DNA from: a virus
Taxonomy: Duplodnaviria; Caudoviricetes
Length of the DNA stretch: 43,619 nucleotides
Direction: 5' to 3' (one strand)
Virus record (IMG/VR): IMGVR_UViG_3300020044_008732
Coordinates: 1-43,619 of that record
Below the pieces are notes generated by a model that was not told where the DNA came from, did not search any database, and saw only the letters and a program-made list of their open reading frames with translations. This document shows positions 410-41,535 of this stretch, one piece after another. The position numbers were made by a program, and so were the translations under genes. Within the stretch, counting starts at the first letter, position 1; each line of letters begins with the position of its first letter.

Positions 410-841
410 ATGACCTTCTCTCTGATACGTTCCGCCAGGCCCCCTTTCTCCCTCAACAATAAGTTCTCCACATCGACCGCTCGCGCCATCCGGGAACGCA
501 TCCCCGTCGAAACCTTAGTAGACCTCGTAGTAGACGCCGCCATGTCGGGGAAGTGCCGACGCATCGACCCCGCGACTGGTGAAGAAGTGGAGCCAGCGCA
601 AGCCATCACGCCCGACCGCCAACTTGACCTGGCACTGAAACTGATCGACAAACGCCTCCCGACCCTGAAGTCCACCGACACCGACCTCCACGACTCCGCT
701 CCCACCTTCGACGCTATTGAAATGTCCCCCGAAGAAATCAAGCGGATGCCCCTCAGTGAATTAGGCCGCATCATGGAGGCGACATACACCATGAACCCGC
801 TACCTCACCCAGATGCGCTAACCCATGACAACGGAGAATAG
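410..841 (+). CDS. terS: Putative terminase small subunit
   Basis: 143-aa helical-looking protein immediately upstream of and overlapping terL; positional call. Confidence 0.55.
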   Translation: MTFSLIRSARPPFSLNNKFSTSTARAIRERIPVETLVDLVVDAAMSGKCRRIDPATGEEVEPAQAITPDRQLDLALKLIDKRLPTLKSTDTDLHDSAPTFDAIEMSPEEIKRMPLSELGRIMEATYTMNPLPHPDALTHDNGE

Positions 842-3359
842 GCTCCAAGCCATCCGCGAGGCATACTCCACCGCGATGGCCCGGCAACTGAAGGCCCGGA
901 CGTCCGTTCTCGCGCAGATCGAAGCGATGGAACCGGGGTGGATGACCGGGGAAGTCCACCGTGAGATAGGGATGCATCTCGACGGGGTAATCAAACTCGT
1001 AGAGAAGGGCGCGGCGAACCCCGGAGAGTGCGCCGGTGGACCGCGACTCATCTTGCAGACTCCGCCAGGTATTGGGAAAACCTTGATGACGGGGGTTCAC
1101 CTCCTCAGTCACGCACTCGGTCTTCACCCAGACTGGCAGTTCATCTATGCAACTTACGCGTTCGACAAGGCGGCGGAAGTCGGGCGCGACACGCGACTGA
1201 GGATCAAGGACCCACGCTACGCCGAGATATTCCCTAACACCAACCTCGACCCCAGTGCACAGAGCATGGACTACTTCCTCACCGATCGCGGCGGGAAAGT
1301 CACGTTCACCGGTATCGGGGGCGGAGCGTTGGGGAAACGTGCACATTGCATTGCCAGCGGGGAGATGGTCGCCACAGAGCATGGCGCACGCCCCATTGAA
1401 ACCGTTCAGGTAGGGGATCTGGTATGGACGTGGAACCACGCCACAGATACCCGCGAACTAAAACCCGTCCGCGCGCGTGTCCGCACCCCGCAGCAACCTG
1501 TGCAACGTGTCACGGCAAGAGGTGTGCAGATCCGCTGTACCGATGACCACTTGCTATTCGACGGCATCGCCTACACTAAAGTGAGCTCCCTTACCAGTAA
1601 GGACTCTCTTTATGTCGACTATTCCCTGCGGCTACTGCCACACGCCTATCCCCATCCTCCGCGCAGACAGGCCCCCGAAGTATTGCAACCACAAGTGCCA
1701 CGGCGCGGCGCGAGTCAAACCCCCTCGTCCGTGCGAGTATTGCGGGGCCGCGCTGAGCACGAAGCACAAACATGTACGCTTCTGCGGGATGAAGTGCCGT
1801 TCCGAAGCGTTACGGAAAGCACCACCAGCGCGGACGTGCGCATGGTGCAAGAAGGGGTTTTACGAGGAGAACTACAAGAGCGTGTACTGCGGGAAAGCGT
1901 GTGCGAACCACGCCCACAGCGCGAGGATGCTCGGAACGGGGAACCCGAACTGGAAGACGGGAGAGGGGGTGGACAGGTACTCCCCGACATTTCACAGCAC
2001 GCTGAGTGCGGGCATACGGAAACGCGACGGAGAGAAGTGCGCGTTGTGCCACGCCACGCCGAAACGCCTCGCAGTCCACCACATCGACGAGAAACCGCAC
2101 AACGACGACGTGACGAACCTGATAACCTTATGTTACGCCTGCCATGTGCGGTGGCACAAATATCCCCCGTCCCCTTTGAAGGCCGCGATGACGACGGCTA
2201 TTCAGACGTATATGACCTCGATGTATCCGACAACCACAACTTCTTCGTCAACGGTATCTTAGTTCATAACTGTCTCGTCGTGGATGATCCGTTCAAAGAC
2301 GAGTACGAAGCCCGCAGCGAACTCCACCAGAAACAAGTGTTCGATTGGCTCCTGTCCGTCGCCAGATCTCGTCTCCATCCGTTCGGTGCGGTCATCGTCA
2401 TCCATCAACGTTGGCATGTCCACGACCTGATCGGGCGGCTTCTCGCACACGCCGCAGCCAATCTGACGGGCGATCAATGGACCGACTGCCAATACCCGAT
2501 GGTCGCCACGGAAGACTGCGGTTGGCGGAAGAAGGGGGAGTCGGTCCACAAGGAACGGTTCAGTAACGCTTGGTGCGAACGGACCAAGAACTCGGTCAGC
2601 GAGTGGGTGTGGTCTGCGATGTATCAACAGTCCCCCACCCTCGATACGGGGCGGATCTTCAAACGGGAGTGGTTTAAAGTCCTTCCGCGAGAGAAGTTCC
2701 CTAAGAACCTGTTGTGGTATATCTCGACGGACTTCGGGGCGGCGGAAATGACAGGCGACCCATCAGTAGCGAGGCCGTTCGCGGTGGATGAGGACGACAA
2801 CGTCTATTTCATCGACCCCTTTCACGCCGCAGTCAGCCCGGACTTGGCGCATAAAGCAACGTTCGACCTGTACCAGAAGAACAACGCTAAAGCGATCTTC
2901 GTTGAAAAGGGCGTACTATGGAGCGCCGCACAGGGGGCCTACCGCCGAGAACAACAAGAACGCCGAGTATACCCTCGGATCGTGGAGTTCAACAGGTCTA
3001 AGAGTAAGGGCGAGTACGCTATGGCGCTAGTGGCGCATATGGCGTCAGGGAAAGTATACCATCTAGATTCCCCATTCACCCACCAAGTCGTGATCCCTCA
3101 GTACATGTCCTTCACAGGTGAGCGCGGAGTCAGCGAAGACGATAACATCGTAGACGCAGACGTCCTCCCCTTCCTTTCGTGGAACGAAGCCCGTTCACCG
3201 TCCCGTGCAGTGCCACTTCCGACTATCGAGCAGATACCGGAAGGCAATAGAGCGATTGAAGCCTCCATGGGGAAAGCCGGATACAAAGACCCGTCGGCAG
3301 AAGGCGATGAAAGTCCGGAGAAGTTTTGGGAGGAGTACAGTGCAGTATCTTGGTACTAG
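825..3359 (+). CDS. terL: Terminase large subunit precursor with intein (844 aa; about 536 aa after splicing)
   Basis: Walker A TPPGIGKT; Walker B CLVVDDP after intein removal; IHQRWHVHDL coupling motif; SAMYQQSP; nuclease domain STDFG...DDNIVDAD. Confidence 0.95.
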   Translation: MTTENRLQAIREAYSTAMARQLKARTSVLAQIEAMEPGWMTGEVHREIGMHLDGVIKLVEKGAANPGECAGGPRLILQTPPGIGKTLMTGVHLLSHALGLHPDWQFIYATYAFDKAAEVGRDTRLRIKDPRYAEIFPNTNLDPSAQSMDYFLTDRGGKVTFTGIGGGALGKRAHCIASGEMVATEHGARPIETVQVGDLVWTWNHATDTRELKPVRARVRTPQQPVQRVTARGVQIRCTDDHLLFDGIAYTKVSSLTSKDSLYVDYSLRLLPHAYPHPPRRQAPEVLQPQVPRRGASQTPSSVRVLRGRAEHEAQTCTLLRDEVPFRSVTESTTSADVRMVQEGVLRGELQERVLRESVCEPRPQREDARNGEPELEDGRGGGQVLPDISQHAECGHTETRRREVRVVPRHAETPRSPPHRRETAQRRRDEPDNLMLRLPCAVAQISPVPFEGRDDDGYSDVYDLDVSDNHNFFVNGILVHNCLVVDDPFKDEYEARSELHQKQVFDWLLSVARSRLHPFGAVIVIHQRWHVHDLIGRLLAHAAANLTGDQWTDCQYPMVATEDCGWRKKGESVHKERFSNAWCERTKNSVSEWVWSAMYQQSPTLDTGRIFKREWFKVLPREKFPKNLLWYISTDFGAAEMTGDPSVARPFAVDEDDNVYFIDPFHAAVSPDLAHKATFDLYQKNNAKAIFVEKGVLWSAAQGAYRREQQERRVYPRIVEFNRSKSKGEYAMALVAHMASGKVYHLDSPFTHQVVIPQYMSFTGERGVSEDDNIVDADVLPFLSWNEARSPSRAVPLPTIEQIPEGNRAIEASMGKAGYKDPSAEGDESPEKFWEEYSAVSWY
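1599..1603 (+). promoter_or_regulatory. Shine-Dalgarno for the nested HNH gene
   Basis: AAGGA at 1599-1603, 8 nt before the ATG at 1612. Confidence 0.65.
1612..2262 (+). CDS. Zinc-finger HNH (homing) endonuclease nested in the +1 frame within the terL intein
   Basis: Three CxxC...CxxxC modules; GTGNPNWKTG (NUMOD3-like); RDGEKCALC...VHHIDEKPHNDDVTNLITLCYACHVRWH HNH motif; own SD, ATG and TAG. Confidence 0.9.
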   Translation: MSTIPCGYCHTPIPILRADRPPKYCNHKCHGAARVKPPRPCEYCGAALSTKHKHVRFCGMKCRSEALRKAPPARTCAWCKKGFYEENYKSVYCGKACANHAHSARMLGTGNPNWKTGEGVDRYSPTFHSTLSAGIRKRDGEKCALCHATPKRLAVHHIDEKPHNDDVTNLITLCYACHVRWHKYPPSPLKAAMTTAIQTYMTSMYPTTTTSSSTVS

Positions 3360-3585
3360 GTGTTACACCCACCCAGATCATCCGGGGCAGTACCTCGCTC
3401 CCGTCAAGAATCGAGCGGGGCTACGCGTCATTGTCCCGCCGTCTCTGGTACCGACTCTCGCTCCGTGCGAAATCTTCCAAGATAAAGCCGGGCGGTTGAT
3501 CGTTCAGAACATCCTCGGGAAGAAGTCCCTTCTAGCGTCCCTCACCCCGTCTCCACAGACAATGCACCACATTATCCCTTCTTGA
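3340..3585 (+). CDS. Hypothetical protein (about 81 aa)
   Basis: GTG at 3340 preceded by GGAGGAG; same frame as listed ORF 3205-3585; fills the gap after terL. Confidence 0.55.
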   Translation: MQYLGTRCYTHPDHPGQYLAPVKNRAGLRVIVPPSLVPTLAPCEIFQDKAGRLIVQNILGKKSLLASLTPSPQTMHHIIPS

Positions 3586-6560: not shown

Positions 6561-7538
6561 GTGAGACCCCAATGGCTACGTCGTGGTGCAAGTCAACCTC
6601 TAGCGGGACCTCACGGGTTCCTGCTCTGGTTGTACAGCGGACTAGTCGCTGTAGGCGCTCCAGCTTTCCTACTGATTTACGGGGAAGTGCTAACCATCTG
6701 GGCGAATATGATGACCATCTTCGGTTCAGGGGTAAACGCACCATCACGCGTTTCCGCTACCGACCCCACATTTTTAATGGGGGCTAACGGCACTGACCCA
6801 GCAAAACTCGCGATCAATAGCGTAGGAAGGGCTCTAATCTCCGCCACGACCCCTATGCAGCAACGCGAAGTGTCTTACGCGAGCCCCATGATGTACGTCG
6901 GGCTGAGTGTAGCGGAAACCTTCCTAGGCATAACCAACTTGGAAGGGAATTTAGCGACAACGTCTTCAACAGGTTCAGCCGCATCGCAGGTAGTAAACGG
7001 GCGTGTCGGCGTTATTCGGCTTTCAGCGAGCACTACTGCAACAAACAACGCGAGGGCGTACGTAGGGTATGGCTCATCTGATAATTGCCTGACGACTGTC
7101 GCGACCCCCATGCATTTTGTCTGTGTGTTAGCGCCATCGGTCGCGCTCTACAGCGGAGGCTCGCCAGGGCGGATCGTCGCGGGGTTTTCAGATACTGACG
7201 GCACAGCATTGCCTCAAGACGCGGCGTGGTTCCGCTCGGACAATGGTGGGGACTGGCAGTGCCAGACGCGTCTCGCGGGCATGACGACTACGGTCGCCAC
7301 CTCCATCGCGCTTTCCCTCGGCGCTTATAAGACTTTCGCGATCAGCCTAACATCGACACTCGCGCAGTTCTGGGTTGATGGGGAGCTCGTGGCTTCAATT
7401 ACGAGCACACTACCCAGTGGCGCGGACCTCACCGGGATACAGGTAGGGACACATAAGACGAGCGCGCACGTAATAAACGGGTCCATTGACGTCGACCTCA
7501 TCAAGATTTTTATCCCTTCCTCCACTGTTTTAGCCTAA
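6561..7538 (+). CDS. Virion protein with lectin/concanavalin-like beta domain, paralog A (start may be 6708)
   Basis: Shares ATDPTFLMGANGTDPAK..INSVGRAL.SATT and WFRSDNGGDW motifs with the next gene. Confidence 0.6.
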   Translation: MRPQWLRRGASQPLAGPHGFLLWLYSGLVAVGAPAFLLIYGEVLTIWANMMTIFGSGVNAPSRVSATDPTFLMGANGTDPAKLAINSVGRALISATTPMQQREVSYASPMMYVGLSVAETFLGITNLEGNLATTSSTGSAASQVVNGRVGVIRLSASTTATNNARAYVGYGSSDNCLTTVATPMHFVCVLAPSVALYSGGSPGRIVAGFSDTDGTALPQDAAWFRSDNGGDWQCQTRLAGMTTTVATSIALSLGAYKTFAISLTSTLAQFWVDGELVASITSTLPSGADLTGIQVGTHKTSAHVINGSIDVDLIKIFIPSSTVLA

Positions 7539-7547
7539 AGAGGTTCT

Positions 7548-8387
7548 ATGGTAGACTTCCCCTCTGGAGTACCCGCGACCAACCCAACATTCTTGTTGGG
7601 GGCGAACGCCACAGATGCAGCAAAAATACCTATTAACGCGGTAGGACGCGCTCTCGTTTCCGCGACGACTGCGGGAGACCAGAGGAACCTTATTCAGGCA
7701 GCCGCAAGTTCTTCGCTCGTTTACGAGAGTGTTGTCCCTTTCCTTAACGGGACTACGGGCCTCGGCCAAGGTATCGCATCGACGGTGACCGGGGGGTCAG
7801 CAGCGAATATCGCGGTAACAGGAAGACAAGGGGTACTGAAGCTCGCAGTAGGAACCGCTGCAACAGCCTCACGCACAAGTCTTCTCGGCTCTATGCTCAC
7901 CGCCGGGATATCTCTAGGCAACGGAGAAATAGAGTTCACAGTAGAAGGGGCACCAACGGTGGCTCTTGCCTCGGGGGGCGTGCAAGGTTTTACGCACATA
8001 GGGCTCCACGACGCGCCGAACAGCGCCGTCGAGCCTACCGACGGGTGTTACTTCCGCTCGACAGATGGCGGTAACTGGTTCGCTGTGTGCCGTTCGAACA
8101 ACGTAGAGACTGCCGTGGGAACGGGGATAGCGCCAACCTTAGACGTGTACTTATTCCACCGCGTTATAGTAAACGCGGATGCTACCAGCGTGAGCTTCAT
8201 GGTTTATGATGCCGCCGGAGTGCTCCTAGATACCCGAACCATCACGACTAACATCCCTTCAGCAGCAGGGAGACAAACGGGGCACGGGGTGCGGATTGTG
8301 CGGTCCACTGCGGTGGGTACCGACCACTCTTACAACGTAGACACCTTCTTCTTCCGCCACACTTACACCACTCCGCTACCGTTCTAG
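7548..8387 (+). CDS. Virion protein with lectin/concanavalin-like beta domain, paralog B
   Basis: ATNPTFLLGANATDAAKIPINAVGRALVSATT; YFRSTDGGNW; SD AGAGG. Confidence 0.65.
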   Translation: MVDFPSGVPATNPTFLLGANATDAAKIPINAVGRALVSATTAGDQRNLIQAAASSSLVYESVVPFLNGTTGLGQGIASTVTGGSAANIAVTGRQGVLKLAVGTAATASRTSLLGSMLTAGISLGNGEIEFTVEGAPTVALASGGVQGFTHIGLHDAPNSAVEPTDGCYFRSTDGGNWFAVCRSNNVETAVGTGIAPTLDVYLFHRVIVNADATSVSFMVYDAAGVLLDTRTITTNIPSAAGRQTGHGVRIVRSTAVGTDHSYNVDTFFFRHTYTTPLPF

Positions 8388-23280: not shown

Positions 23281-26200
23281 ATGCCGCGTCGCAATCTTGC
23301 CTCCTTATTTGCGCCACCTACCCCAGAGCCCGCGCCAACGCCAGCGGCGCTGCCTGCGCATATCCAACGGCCACAAAGCGCTGTTGGGGGGTTAGAGGCG
23401 CTCGCCTCGCAAGGTTTGCAGATGATGCCGGGCGGAGGGCACCGCCCCGGTGCGCCAGCGTTTGCGCAAGACCCCGCTGCGACACGCGGGTTTACGCCCG
23501 CGCCTCCCCAGGCAACAAGCCGCCCTTACGAGCCGGGGCTGTTTGAACGGGTTTCAGGTGGGTTGTCTTCGTTAGCGCGAGCGGCGGATCAAGGGGTCCA
23601 GCACGCGGTGGACCAGCAAGCCATCGCGCTGGCGAAAACTGCCTCCATTATGGGGGCAGTGGAACCGACGACGGTGAAGCGCTTACAAGCCGACGTGGAC
23701 CGTTCAGAGGCTCTTCGTACGCTCCCCTCGACAGGGACTTTAGCGGACGAGATTTCTCCCTACGTGCGCGAAACCACAAACCTCGGCACCCATATTGCCC
23801 CTTTCTTTATCCCCGGCGGAACCGCCGCTGCCGCCCCTCTGCTTATGGGCGAAACCACGTACGACGCTGCCGAAGAAGGCGTAAACCCTTACGAGGCTGT
23901 CGGAGTCGGCGGGCTCCGTGGCGTTGCTTCCGCAGCGTTACCTTTCGCCGCTGCACGCGGTGCAGCGGCTATCCAACGCGTAGCGCCACAGCTCCCGGCT
24001 TCAGTTCTGGCGACAGGTTCTGGTGTAGCGGTCGGCGCAGGACTCCCTCTCGCAGATGCCGCCGCGTACCAAACGGTGGGGATGGACGAGCGTGCTCAAC
24101 AAGCGCTAGGTTCGACTGGGCTAAGCTCCGGCGTCGGCGGTTTGATGGGTCTCGGCAGTACCTTCCTCTCCCGAGGCCGTGTCGCGCCGGTACCAGCCCC
24201 GCAACGCCCTGCGCAGCAGCCTCTATCACCGGAAATCACCGCGCGACAGCATAATTTAGACCCTATCCAACGTGACATCACACCTGAGATGTACGCATCT
24301 TCGACTACTCTTGACCCTGTTATAGTAGACGCGGGGGGCTTACCTAGGATAGGCACTCCAGGCCGCTTCGTTCGGACTGGCGATACACCTGCGGTTGGTC
24401 CAGACGGTTTACCGTTAGGCACTCCAGGCCGCTTCATTCGGACTGGCGATACACCTGCGGCGGGCCCTGAAGGCTACCGCGAACAGGTCGCGGCCCCTCG
24501 AGTTCCTGAAGGCTACCGTACCCCGCTACGTGAACAGAACATCCAACCACAACGTCAAGACCCCACGGTCTACGGGCTCGACCCCGTTATCGCATACAAC
24601 GAGCGTGTGCCTGTCGCTCCTCCCCTTACCTCAACTTCAGCGCAAACGCCGAAGAGGGCTGCCCCAACGACCCGCCCAGTCAAGCCCGAGTACGGAACAA
24701 CCACGGAGCAAGATCTCGCGTCGGTGCGCCCACGCGTAGACATCGACCAGTCACTACCAGAGACGTCAGAGTTTCCTGCGGTAGCGTCGCCACGCCCGGA
24801 CGCAGACACACCCACTCGTCTAGACACGCCAAACCCCGTCTCTACCCCTATACCACCTCCTAACCCCGGGCGGTTCAGTCTCAGGGGTAATGCAGTGCGG
24901 CGCGGGGCAGCAGACCTTGGAGGGCCTACCGCGCAACCGGGGGATGGCCTCGCCCACCTGTCGCCAGAAGCTCAGACCTACGTCCGTAGCCTTCCTGGCG
25001 ATGCGCGCGCACGGCTTCAACCGTCTATCGAATATTTCAAAGGTGCCCCGGACCCGCAAGGGGACAAGGCCAACCTAGAGATGCTTGCCGGAGTGAAAAC
25101 GAAAACAGCGAAAACAGCGGAAACAGCGAAAACAACGGAAACAACGGAAACAACGGAAACAACGGAACCAGCGGAACCGGGGCGGTTCAGTATTAAAAGC
25201 GACGCTACACGGCGCGGCGCAGTCCCTATAGGCAACACCCCCACACCGAAAGGGCCTGCTACCCCAGCCGACCCCCCTCAGAGCGGCAGCGTTCGACGGG
25301 CGCTCGACACCTACCATGAACGGATCTGGAAAGTCTTAGCGAATAAACCCGAGGGCAAAGCCGTCGGTCAAAAGGCTCGCGACACGTTGACATTAGCAAA
25401 AGAGTTCGAAGGGGTTCTAAGCGGTGACGCGTTCAAAGCGAAGAAGTCGGTACAAGGGAGCGGAAAAGGCCGCGCAGCGCGCAAGTCTTTCGCAGAACAA
25501 CGCCGTAACGGCGACGCGGTTTACGCGCGTGTCCACGACGTGTTAGAAGGGCGCGTAGTTACCCGCCCAGAGGAGGCCGACTTTGTAGCGAAGTTCCGCC
25601 CTTTGCATTACAAATCGGGCTTGATAAACCAGAGGATCGGCGTCAAGATCCAAACGAAAGACGGAGAGGTACCTTTTACCGCTGACCAACGTCGACTTCA
25701 CGCCCCTCGGGTCCACACGGACGAGCTCCTCTATTTATCGCAACGACCAAACGATCCCGCCACGATCAAACTCATCGACGTCCTCTCGAAAGAAAACCCG
25801 GGAGTGTCAATCAAGAAGATCCAAGAAGAGCTGTCTGACTTCGGTTCTTTAGCGCTCACACGTCGCGGCATGACCGAAGACTCCCGTGTCATCGAGAACT
25901 TCCCCACGCACTTCTATGACCATAAAGGGCGGTTGATCCAACTGCTGTCGGACGATCCTGCGAAACTCGTCGACACTATCGCGGTTCGTATGCCCGCCCG
26001 TTCCGCGTTCATCGCGAAATTCGGTCAAGAAGCGGTGCCGAAGGATTTCCAGGACTTACTCAAAGATTCCTCTGCTCCCGACGTTCGCCAAGCGGCTGAA
26101 AATACTTTTCGGGCGCTTAACCATATGCGCCTTCCGGACATAGGCGAAAGCACCTTTGCGGGTGCAACGGGACGCCCTGGCAGCGCCCGCCGTAAAACGT

Positions 26201-35052: not shown

Positions 35053-35219
35053 TTGTCCTCTGCGTCGCGTTGTCCGTCTTCAAAGCCTTTGTCGTACTCC
35101 GCTTCCAAGTCGTCTTCCATGTGGAGACGCGCCATATCGAGGAACACTAGGTACTCGGTGGTCGTCCATACTCTGTCTCGGAGGTGGGAGAGTTCGTGCG
35201 CGAATGCGGTAGGTGTCAT
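35049..35219 (-). CDS. Small acidic hypothetical protein (56 aa, MTPTAFAHEL...)
   Basis: ATGA overlaps at both ends. Confidence 0.65.
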   Translation of the reverse strand: MTPTAFAHELSHLRDRVWTTTEYLVFLDMARLHMEDDLEAEYDKGFEDGQRDAEDK

Positions 35220-37660
35220 GCTTGCCCCTTTGGCCTGACGGCCAACATGAGTGTGTTTGCTGAGAGAGATTCCCCGTCCCATGCGCGCGGTCTGACAGCG
35301 GCTTCCCATTGGAAGGCTTCTCCGGGGAGCGTGTGCCAGACTACCTGCTTGTCCGCGAGCGATGCGGCGTAGAAGGCGCGAATGCTGAGGGTAAGGGCGC
35401 GAGTGATGGCGACGTTGGTAGCACGGATCTCTTGACCTGTCAAGGCCGGTAGGAGACGGTGGAAACTGGCGCAACCAGGGACCATGCCTTGCAGGCGCAG
35501 CTTGCAGAGGGTGGAGACGGGTATCCACCGCACCCCGCCGATGTCGTTGCCTTCCACTGCCGCACCGATCACGATGGGGCTGATAGTCGCGTCGTCCGCG
35601 CCAGCCCAGAACGAGTGCCACGACAAGCGAACATTTTGCCCCGTAGCAGAGGATGCGCTGACGCCGTTTTGGTCCGCGAGTTGTTGGTGGTATTCCAAGT
35701 CGTTGTCCATCGACAGCCGCACATCATCGACCAGTCGTTGCGCGTGCTCCATCGTGCAGTCAGGAATCCCGGCGCAGGCGATAGCGGAGGCGATGGCGCG
35801 GTGAGACGTGAACCGCCACGCATGCGGGGACGCTTTCAACACGCGGCTTTGTTGTTGCAGTTCGAGACGTTCGACCAGGGACACCGCAGCGAGGCGGAGG
35901 TACAAGGCATACTTCCCGCTCTCCAAGTCGTCTTTGATGTCGGTGCGTGCGCGTTGTTCATCGGGGAGCGAGTCGAGGAAGATCGGGATCGTGCGATTGC
36001 GCAAGTCGGGGGAGAGGTCCAACCATTTCGCATTGAGGACCAGGGAGTAGTGAAGGCGGACGGTGCCTTCATTCTTTAGCGCTTTACCGGACGAGATGAC
36101 GCCGCCAGTACAGAGAGATTGTAGGTTGTCGCGTGCCAGGACATGCGAGGGGGTATCGGGGATACGAAACTCGTCGAGTGCGAGTGTGCCCCACCGTTCG
36201 AGTTCAGCCGCCACGCTGCGGGAATCGGGCGCGGAGGAGGAGTTGGGGGCGGTCAGGACGGGAATACCTACCGCCATGGCCCCGGCGATGGCTCCGACCA
36301 GTAAGCCCTTACCTTGGTTCGTGGTGAGTTCTGCTGACGGGTACACGGGGAGGACAGCAACGAGGGGGTATTCGCGTAGCAGGTCAGGGCGCGAAGGACG
36401 GAGAACAGCCGCGCATAGGATGGAATCAACGAGGGCGAGGTACCCCACCCGGTCCTCTCCTTCCGGTAACACCCAATGGGGGTATATCTCGGTCAGAATC
36501 GCGGAGGGGGACGTTTCGGGGTAGGAACCGGGGAGGGAATACTCGAAGAGTTGGCGTTGCTTAGCGAAGTCGGAGGCGGTCGTCGTGTTCCACGCGTATG
36601 CGAGCACGTCGTCTTCGGTCCCTTCGTAAGGGGTGATGAGGCCGTTCGCGGCTCTCCACGCGCCTGAGATGCGGACACCGGGGGAGAGGAACGCAGCGGG
36701 CCCCGGGTAAACTTGTGGGAGAAGGGTTGACCAAGGTCCCGCAAGGACCGCACCGGGGAGTTCTGTCACAGGAGCGCAGCGCAGGAGGTCGTCGGCACCA
36801 AGGGAAGCTGCCGCCCACGTGAGCGCTTTCTTCTTCACTGAGTGCTTCGCTTCAGGTCGTCGGAGGCAGTGAGCCGCTGCGTTCCAAAACTGGGGGCAAC
36901 CCACAGAGCGGAACACCCGGGTGTTGTGGGGTATGGACTCGATCACACCACGGTATGCCATATGCAGGTGGTCAGGGGCGCATCGAACGTGCTTCAAGAA
37001 GTGGCACATCGCTACGGCGCGGAGCCATTCCGGCGCTTCGTCGCCGTCCCAATCAGGGATCGACGCCCAGTCAATCCAGAGCAAAGAGGTAGGCCACCCG
37101 CATGCGCGGTGCGCTTCGATCAGGTGCTTATCCCATTCCGCGTTCGATTCGAGTGGATCGAAAGGGCATCCTTCGGCTTGTTCGCACACTGCGCGTGCGA
37201 GGAGTTTCCAGTGGGTAAACCCGGCCCCGCTGAGGACACACCGGAGACGATAAAACGCGAAGTCTGCGTTCTTCTCTTCGACGCCAGCTTTAGGTAACGC
37301 GTACCACCTAGCCAATCTCCCCACCATGCTCTGATAGACGGGAAACATGCCGGGAGCCTCACCCATCGGTGCGGCTTGGCAGAGGTCCGTGATGGCTTCT
37401 TGTGCGTCAACGGGGACGTTGAGCGCTTGCCAACCTTTGCGCTCTTCGTCGGGGTAGATGGGCAAGCGCGGGTCCGCTTGCGCGGCCAAGTGCGTGGACT
37501 CGCGGTCGATCTCTGCGCGGAACTCGTCCCACGTCACACCATCGACGAACGGTTTGCCGAGGTATCGGAGGTACGGGATATCTTCTTCCGTGACCTCCTC
37601 AGGCGAGGGTATGCCTATTATGCGGTGCGCGTTCGCGTGGTACAGTTCGAGTAGGTTCAC
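35216..37660 (-). CDS. Divergent primase-helicase-like protein with SF3-type ATPase domain
   Basis: NQGKG Walker A, LALDE Walker B, VLNA motif C, DLRNR arginine finger; N-terminal half unrecognised. Confidence 0.6.
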   Translation of the reverse strand: MNLLELYHANAHRIIGIPSPEEVTEEDIPYLRYLGKPFVDGVTWDEFRAEIDRESTHLAAQADPRLPIYPDEERKGWQALNVPVDAQEAITDLCQAAPMGEAPGMFPVYQSMVGRLARWYALPKAGVEEKNADFAFYRLRCVLSGAGFTHWKLLARAVCEQAEGCPFDPLESNAEWDKHLIEAHRACGWPTSLLWIDWASIPDWDGDEAPEWLRAVAMCHFLKHVRCAPDHLHMAYRGVIESIPHNTRVFRSVGCPQFWNAAAHCLRRPEAKHSVKKKALTWAAASLGADDLLRCAPVTELPGAVLAGPWSTLLPQVYPGPAAFLSPGVRISGAWRAANGLITPYEGTEDDVLAYAWNTTTASDFAKQRQLFEYSLPGSYPETSPSAILTEIYPHWVLPEGEDRVGYLALVDSILCAAVLRPSRPDLLREYPLVAVLPVYPSAELTTNQGKGLLVGAIAGAMAVGIPVLTAPNSSSAPDSRSVAAELERWGTLALDEFRIPDTPSHVLARDNLQSLCTGGVISSGKALKNEGTVRLHYSLVLNAKWLDLSPDLRNRTIPIFLDSLPDEQRARTDIKDDLESGKYALYLRLAAVSLVERLELQQQSRVLKASPHAWRFTSHRAIASAIACAGIPDCTMEHAQRLVDDVRLSMDNDLEYHQQLADQNGVSASSATGQNVRLSWHSFWAGADDATISPIVIGAAVEGNDIGGVRWIPVSTLCKLRLQGMVPGCASFHRLLPALTGQEIRATNVAITRALTLSIRAFYAASLADKQVVWHTLPGEAFQWEAAVRPRAWDGESLSANTLMLAVRPKGQA

Positions 37661-40410: not shown

Positions 40411-41535
40411 TTATGACTGGTGCGCAATGAGGGTTTCTTTGAATCCACAGATGTCTTCGTGCGCTTCCGTGCAGGTCCGGCAGGTGAGGGATACTGGCAT
40501 CGCGTAGATGCGGCCAGTGCTATTGTCGCTCCCGTAGAGGTAGCGGTTGCCGTCTCGGTCCTCGAACAGGCCGCGAGGGAGGCTGTGCCACACGTCAGCG
40601 TGGAGTAGTTTGGCTTTCGTTTCGCTGAGGTACTTAGCTCGCCCGAAGCGGTCGATCATAATGCGTCGGACTTCTGCGTTGTTTTCTTTCTTGATTTCTT
40701 CTACCGTGATCTTTTCGGGTGTCAACACTACCCAACTAGGCACGACCTGCCCGTGGATGTGCCACAGTTCCCAGCCGTCGCGCCAGCGGTGAGAGGGGCC
40801 GTCGTCGCAATGGGGACGGTTCTGCGAGTCGGTGCGGATAAACTCCGGGTTGTCTGATACCACACAGAACTTTTCGTGCATACACCGGAACCCCGCGTCT
40901 GCGGCGTCTTCCCAGTGTTTGAGTGCCGCGTGTTCGGGTAGGTCTAACCATCCTAGGTCGCGGTAGGCGGTGAGGTAGCCGAGCCAAGCGGCCCACATTC
41001 GTCCACCTTGGTAGGCGTTGGTCCATTTACTCGCGCAACCTAAAGCGGCTAGCATCGATATGCCCGTGTCTTGGCAGAACATCGAAATACCTGCCGTGTG
41101 GGGGGTCGCAGCATCGGTCGCAGCATCGGTCGCAGCATCGGTCGCAGCACGGGTCGCATCATCGGTCGCAACGTAGGTCGCATCATCGGTCGCAGCATAG
41201 GTCGCAGCACGGGTCGCATCATCGGTCGCAGCACTGGTCGCAACGTAGGTCGCAGCACTGGTCGCATCATCGGTCGCAGCATCGGTAGACGTACCCTTGT
41301 TGACGTGCCACCACCAAGCAGCCGCACCGTAAACTAAGGCCATTTGCAACGGACTCTGGACGACCACAACGCGAGGGGCGGCAAGTTTCGCTGCCGCATA
41401 CATCCCGAGGATGCCACGGGTCACTTTCTCGCGGTCGCACGGCTCGCAGCCGTAGGCGTGTTTTATCCACTTGGCGGTATGTGCTGCGAGTTGTTTGTGA
41501 ACTTCTGGTGTGAAGTCGATGTGCAGTTTTTTCAT
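40411..41535 (-). CDS. DUF6745-like protein with central tetrapeptide repeat (374 aa)
   Basis: VVSDNP...DSQNRPHCDDGPSHRWRDGWELWHIHG..VP, ENNAEVRRIMI, STGRIY; start at ATG 41535. Confidence 0.75.
   Translation of the reverse strand: MKKLHIDFTPEVHKQLAAHTAKWIKHAYGCEPCDREKVTRGILGMYAAAKLAAPRVVVVQSPLQMALVYGAAAWWWHVNKGTSTDAATDDATSAATYVATSAATDDATRAATYAATDDATYVATDDATRAATDAATDAATDAATPHTAGISMFCQDTGISMLAALGCASKWTNAYQGGRMWAAWLGYLTAYRDLGWLDLPEHAALKHWEDAADAGFRCMHEKFCVVSDNPEFIRTDSQNRPHCDDGPSHRWRDGWELWHIHGQVVPSWVVLTPEKITVEEIKKENNAEVRRIMIDRFGRAKYLSETKAKLLHADVWHSLPRGLFEDRDGNRYLYGSDNSTGRIYAMPVSLTCRTCTEAHEDICGFKETLIAHQS
41104..41283. repeat. 12-bp tandem repeat x15 (GGTCGCA plus 5 variable nt)
   Basis: Encodes xxAT tetrapeptides on the minus strand. 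Confidence 0.95.

Follow-up and report, generated by a model that had tools for sequence, protein, structure and literature searches.

A nested out-of-frame HNH endonuclease gene in a predicted terL intein of a tailed phage

Organization of the terL locus

The window, meaning the whole stretch of 43,619 nt that was analysed, is a complete IMG/VR virus record with 121-nt terminal repeats. Its terL gene is a single open frame encoding 844 aa, which predicted splicing would reduce to 536 aa, and matches phrog_38, the terminase large subunit, in a PHROG profile search (E 2e-60). Within this frame lies an intein, and within the intein, in the +1 frame, a second gene (Table 1). Upstream of terL, a 143-aa ORF (410–841) encodes the probable small terminase and has no family match; it is preceded by two 42-nt direct repeats (90%; 243–284 and 302–343) and a promoter-like site (365–392). 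Elsewhere in the window, a 405-aa DUF6745 gene contains a 12-nt tandem array (41104–41295), and a 1493-aa ORF carries a 9-nt array and a 58-nt duplication (25091–25180; 24350–24473). An adjacent gene pair at 6561–8387 encodes SO2946-like C-terminal domains (Pfam PF22237; E 6e-6 and 1e-16), and an 814-aa ORF on the minus strand (35216–37660), with no Pfam or PHROG match, adjoins the DNA polymerase and helicase genes.

Table 1 Features of the terL locus in window coordinates
Feature	Position	Strand	Evidence
terL precursor gene	825..3359	+	open frame, phrog_38, homologs
N-extein with Walker A TPPGIGKT, ending ...GKRAH	825..1346	+	frame and homolog alignment
Class 1 intein, 308 aa, directly 5' of Walker B strand CLVVDDP	1347..2270	+	Pfam, motifs, empty homologs, fold
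Intein N-terminal splicing region, C1 and block B TDDH (1539–1550)	1347..1622	+	model, motifs
Passenger segment as read in the terL frame; without a domain, model mostly of low confidence	1623..2159	+	Pfam, model
Intein C-terminal splicing region, block F VYDLDV and block G HN	2160..2270	+	motifs, model
Shine-Dalgarno-like AAGGA, 8 nt before the nested ATG	1599..1603	+	
Predicted RNA hairpin pairing the Shine-Dalgarno and ATG	1573..1615	+	weak RNA folding signal
Nested gene for a zinc-finger HNH endonuclease, 216 aa, +1 with respect to the terL frame	1612..2262	+	ORF, PHROG, fold
Three CxxC...CxxxC modules, HNH residues 6–97	1627..1902	+	motifs, model
HNH nuclease core, residues 143–182	2038..2157	+	
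C-extein from Cys+1, with Walker B DD and nuclease domain	2271..3359	+	

An initial annotation, made from the sequence alone, described a 308-aa terL intein with all splicing blocks, and each of these was found: C1, T65-D-D-H68, V288-Y-D290-L-D-V, H307-N308 and Cys+1. The Pfam Intein_splicing model scores 36.8 bits against a cut-off of 35.8, a profile match links the insert to the NrdJ-1 intein (E 2e-24), and its limits coincide exactly with a gap in all 17 intein-free close terL homologs. T65 and H68 are invariant across 31 family inteins. The structural model is confident over residues 1–90 (pLDDT 95–98), and the predicted N- and C-terminal regions together adopt a HINT fold (TM 0.88 by target length to gp41-1, rmsd 1.9); a PDB search with the model returned 32 chains at E ≤ 0.001, those listed being inteins or other HINT domains. 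By its residues, its modelled HINT fold and its precise in-frame insertion, the insert is a class 1 intein, whose splicing is predicted from the intact residues and the location in the Walker B motif.

As annotated, the terL frame has no recognisable motifs between blocks B and F, and Pfam finds no domain there; within this passenger segment, pLDDT falls below 50 at intein residues 100–124, 143–157, 190–244 and 246–253. A canonical bifunctional intein with an in-frame LAGLIDADG or HNH domain was rejected because the intein's own frame carries no endonuclease.

The complete 216-aa ORF reported in the +1 frame was confirmed, with its Cys pairs, GNPNWK motif and intact HNH active-site residues. 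Three CxxC/CxxxC pairs occupy residues 6–29, 41–62 and 76–97, and the core residues are C143/C146, H156-H157, N169, C174/C177, H178 and H182. The match to Pfam HNH is weak (E 1e-3, under the cut-off) and that to PHROG HNH strong (E 2e-23); an HNH fold is supported, with Foldseek by itself reaching only E 0.014. Model confidence is high over the Cys modules (pLDDT 91–97) and below 50 in the tail (residues 203–216). The three modules are likely zinc-binding DNA-recognition repeats, judging from motifs and model. The gene also has, as claimed, its own Shine-Dalgarno, ATG and TAG inside the intein; the start lies 265 nt after C1, the stop ends 8 nt ahead of the intein end, and the third frame is full of stops across the locus. 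The annotated division into an HNH frame and a junk frame holds for most of the insert, where the terL frame is the passenger; it reverses over the final ~26 HNH codons, which overlap block F and where the HNH tail is the passenger.

The predicted hairpin pairs the Shine-Dalgarno (1598–1602 with 1589–1593) as well as the ATG. Its z-score is −1.6, with 9 of 200 shuffles folding equally well, and the Shine-Dalgarno has an unpaired probability of 0.13 in the window; across the family loci, the hairpin gave no family-wide signal. No promoter-like site was found inside the intein. Hairpins that bury the Shine-Dalgarno limit endonuclease output in T4-like phages.

Frame selection and close terL relatives

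Chance openness of the terL frame was assessed by holding the HNH protein fixed over 191 codons, redrawing synonymous codons and checking the terL frame. The resulting probability ranged from 0.0003 under genome codon usage up to 0.009 when the gene's own codons were shuffled, so the earlier estimate of less than 1% was fair. The same frame is open in 5 of 610 overlapping 191-codon windows drawn from 20 ordinary genes of the phage, and none of the 38 positions at which a synonymous T would create a terL-frame stop has one. In the HNH frame, GC content by codon position is 0.52/0.53/0.78; inside 1612–2184, the GC peak shifts from the third position of terL codons to that of HNH codons. Across the family, 51 of 59 dereplicated loci have their highest GC3 in the HNH frame.

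Contigs from other studies were compared with the window over 800–3400. One spans 824–2710, and others cover 1429–2162 (12 differences), 1596–2155 (10) and 1534–1998 (18). No indel appeared within 1347–2270 in any of the contig pieces (4/4 runs of 4 studies); the layout is therefore not an assembly error. The intein is ~98% identical in these samples while the extein pieces differ by 7–13%, which fits either recent spread or strong constraint.

The expectation of constraint in the +1 frame only was borne out in part: dN/dS was 0.16 for the HNH frame versus 1.41 for the host frame, pooled over only two usable pairs, neither from the window's clade. Between the window and P0006, a homolog bearing the same intein, 8 of 191 passenger residues changed and at most three of the changes force a change in the HNH protein. 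For two further homologs, P0007 and P0008, the +1 frame was deduced from the protein rather than read from DNA. Their passenger-frame identity to the window is only 39% and 36%, yet they can accommodate 129 and 117 of the 191 HNH residues, where shuffles reach 56 at most, and no +1 stop is forced; the start codon, GNPNW and HHID all fit the +1 reading of both. Codon bias and conservation in the +1 frame thus fit selection acting on the HNH frame.

Among 27 terL matches, these three have this intein at the identical site, and 17 close matches have no insert; the window's near relatives come from aquatic and sediment metagenome runs. Every intein allele has a close intein-free sister, and in the plus/minus pairs P0007/P0013 and P0008/P0016 the exteins are ~95% identical. 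P0006 matches the window throughout the flanks of the intein (35/35 residues before, 38/38 after); its distal C-extein equals that of the intein-free P0009 (239/239) and matches the window at 176/240 residues. Its source contig also shares P0009's three-codon insertion near the start. This mosaic, a single case at protein level, fits homing with two-sided co-conversion and could also have arisen by ordinary recombination. Relative to the window's N-extein, the contig from run X1 has one base missing and one added (946 and 1224), where the window matches the 17 empty homologs; as a result, the P0006 protein starts late.

The +1 residue is Cys in 4/4 intein alleles, whereas 16 of the 17 empty ones have I, V or L there, so the splicing nucleophile would mostly have to arrive with the intein. 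Intein divergence among the window, P0007 and P0008 is similar to extein divergence and hence gives no sign of transfer among these sublineages. Overall, the distribution of empty and filled alleles fits a homing-like pattern.

A wider family of nested HNH inteins

A HMMER scan identified 600 relatives of the HNH protein at E ≤ 1e-10. Tails were analysed in 148 proteins with a usable tail, comprising the window's own, two others and 145 of the best 150. Of these tails, 58 can be read as the +1 frame of block F, against 9% expected from shuffles; 24 match at 16 of 18 motif positions, for which shuffles predict 0.1%. Two such proteins turned out in the tree to be identical to nested ORFs read directly from DNA. 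The nested-HNH label clusters on this tree, requiring 22 changes versus 67 when shuffled (0/500), with few forks supported. Free-standing relatives of the same HNH type also exist.

A frame-neutral DNA pattern, LCxxCH joined to an intein C-terminus, recovered at least 120 loci from IMG/VR; because its spacing was chosen from this HNH intein family, the 120 loci listed are a sample and not a census. The HNH lies in +1 in 111 of them, in frame in six and in +2 in three. Long flanks are available for 80 of the listed loci, of which 75 are +1, and 68 of these 75 lie at Walker B. In 70 of the 75 the host frame stays open over 300 codons or more, and in the other five the contig end cuts it. Asked whether the +1 frame is routinely broken in homologs, these 70 open-host loci largely answer in the negative: 63 keep a long HNH frame, whereas seven are decayed or shortened (five mini-intein deletions with a vestigial HNH tail, one HNH-only stop and one N-terminal shortening). 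Such decay forms fit a homing cycle. A Shine-Dalgarno and start precede the first CxxC in 21 of 51 family loci, and the enrichment is frame-specific (+1, 17/51; +2, 5/51).

The same layout occurs in four cultured phages. An unannotated +1 ORF is present in Ralstonia RS-CA1, Gordonia Clown and Synechococcus S-EIVl; in S-EIVl, no His-Asn-Cys end was matched. Among 57 matches to the HNH protein, 41 are Brucella phage records.

Several loci depart from the common arrangement. Seven (L032, L063, L066, L099, L113, L119 and L124) carry the +1 nested HNH intein apparently near the N-terminus of a terminase (for example, WHLDAI|C...HN|CDHL), and the family thus uses more than one target. At L012, L050 and L075, a Cys-rich HNH in +2 precedes an intein C-part whose own frame is open for only 41–63 codons, an arrangement suggestive of a free-standing HNH gene between the halves of a split intein. 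The six in-frame loci, where the HNH shares the frame of the intein C-terminus, are L026, L056, L092, L093, L112 and L118; five of them end 12–16 residues past HN in a CxC-type tail, in a different host gene. Host frames far longer upstream than in a single-intein terL were seen at L008, L019, L044, L052, L067, L068 and P0145, with a second, LAGLIDADG-like intein upstream in L019, L068 and P0145. In P0034 and P0145, the N-extein of TerL and the N-part of the intein run in frame into an HNH of this type, while the tail remains the +1 reading of block F; an indel from assembly, a split intein or a frameshift product may lie behind these forms.

Relation to known systems and proposed working of the element

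The initial annotation had proposed a two-frame selfish element of undescribed architecture. Its first part fits the absence of indels, the +1 codon bias and conservation, and the homing-like distribution; its claim of novelty is wrong. The terL intein with its HNH belongs to a known, widespread phage family, in print for Brucella phages since 2015: the relevant passages of PMC4422536 state the arrangement for the brucellaphage terL, GenBank JN939331 annotates both ORFs (ORF7/ORF8), and two preprints, of 2025 and 2026, describe out-of-frame intein endonucleases.

In Brucella phages Tb and Pr (Perisivirus), the terL intein with nested ORF8 HNH resembles the window in its host gene, its insertion before Walker B (GNRAD|C...HN|CVIIDDP) and its +1 same-strand HNH, whose tail overlaps block F and whose stop lies 8 nt before the intein end. 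The HNH proteins are homologous (37% over 203 columns, E 9e-25), and in Tb AAGGA likewise precedes the start, annotated as GTG rather than ATG. Lengths differ modestly, with 308 aa in the window versus 332 for the intein and 216 versus 228 for the HNH. The sequences are distant and the phages unrelated, the window's relatives being found in aquatic and sediment metagenomes. The same passages of PMC4422536 contain no frame-selection or homing analysis.

Gosselin et al. 2025 likewise describe an endonuclease encoded between the splicing blocks but in its own frame, an unstructured in-frame passenger and terL among the hosts, and propose a free-standing nuclease invading an intein as the origin. 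Their same-strand case is endonuclease VII-like and in frame 3, whereas the window nuclease is a zinc-finger HNH and lies in frame 2; they describe their HNH class as in frame, unlike that of the window. Assignment to their frame-3 class was rejected, given the +1 start and the stop-filled third frame; the Pfam, PHROG and fold matches of the window nuclease are to HNH. The terL intein of Gordonia phage Clown, included in their set, carries a +1 HNH homolog, and either Gosselin et al. 2025 or Phillips et al. may already class it. The cyanobacterial dnaX intein, in the parts of Phillips et al. (bioRxiv 10.64898/2026.09.14.751524) that describe it, shares an overlapping ORF, Shine-Dalgarno motifs, frame-specific dN/dS and, as in the window's family, coexisting empty, mini and full alleles; it differs in its LAGLIDADG nuclease and bacterial dnaX host. 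The ShiLan insertion in mycobacteriophage methylases, as described in the relevant part of PMC11855218, also places an HNH in another frame with the host frame kept open, but is without a splicing domain and a Shine-Dalgarno. In the literature searched, we found no experimental test of translation or homing of any out-of-frame intein nuclease.

Self-excision of inteins is established chemistry. We consider it probable, at roughly 0.78, that the terL intein is spliced out with its passenger, that the zinc-finger HNH is translated from its own ribosome site, and that this nuclease nicks intein-free terL, whose repair copies the insert. TerL would be made as a precursor from which the intein removes itself and roughly 180 passenger residues, restoring GKRAH-CLVVDDP and the ATPase; removal would be needed because the intein separates the Walker B strand from the remaining ATPase. 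The HNH would be made separately from AAGGA and the ATG on the terL message, and its three Cys modules would read a target near the empty site. In mixed infection, the HNH would nick the empty allele, and repair would copy the intein and convert its flanks, bringing the Cys+1 codon that most empty alleles lack. The element probably originated by insertion of a free-standing zinc-finger HNH gene into a mini-intein, with nothing but terL-frame stops needing to be purged, an origin that the free-standing HNH relatives fit.

Other readings of the locus are improbable. The foremost, itself unlikely, is that the HNH arises by +1 ribosomal frameshifting before the ATG, yielding a fusion of TerL N-part, intein N-part and HNH. 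Thirty of 51 family loci are without a clear Shine-Dalgarno and start, P0034 and P0145 have the corresponding parts fused in frame, and the window contains CTT TAT G four bases past AAGGA, which we take to resemble a CUU-U shift site. Against this stand the good Shine-Dalgarno at 8 nt, an ATG five codons before the first Cys and compatible with P0006, P0007 and P0008 at the same position, and a +1-frame stop 9 codons above that ATG; neither a stop nor a rare codon is present to stall the ribosome, and the two fused forms may be assembly indels.

A little less probable again is a well-preserved relic, unexpressed or inactive, within a splicing intein. The predicted burial of the Shine-Dalgarno and ATG and the decayed copies in 6 to 7 of 70 family loci would suit such a relic, whereas the catalytic and Cys residues are all intact, the changes relative to P0006 mostly spare the HNH frame, and the intein is far better conserved between samples than its flanks. 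Slightly weaker still is the idea that the phage keeps the HNH because it helps in packaging or replication, in the manner of terminase-associated HNH proteins: passages of PMC4422536 raise both ideas for the brucellaphage ORF and the gene is, by position, co-transcribed with terL, but 17 close terL homologs are without the whole insert, and 6 of 70 loci have lost the HNH through deletion or a stop while terL stays intact. The reading as a conventional intein with an in-frame HNH, obscured by a pair of compensating indels from sequencing, is conceivable for a single metagenomic assembly but already refuted by the indel-free contigs of four other studies, by the same layout in the cultured phages and in most of the listed pattern matches, and by an HNH tail that overlaps block F out of frame, inexplicable by indels.

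Returning to the selfish two-frame element, a broader proposition seems to us evenly balanced: that +1 nested HNH inteins form a large family, both ancient and stable and perhaps the chief HNH-type intein of phage terminases, which homes into a nucleophile-less Walker B through flank co-conversion to Cys, and in which the separate frame lets nuclease dose or loss vary without touching TerL. Such a family would have been overlooked because gene callers drop the inner ORF.

The window locus offers a clean test case, combining a strong Shine-Dalgarno and ATG, a short intact HNH and close intein-free sisters that give the target site. The 111 of 120 listed pattern matches in +1, together with the unannotated ORFs, suggest that many terL inteins regarded as having a decayed endonuclease carry an intact nuclease in a different frame. 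Such hidden intact nucleases bear on annotation and on models of endonuclease acquisition by inteins.
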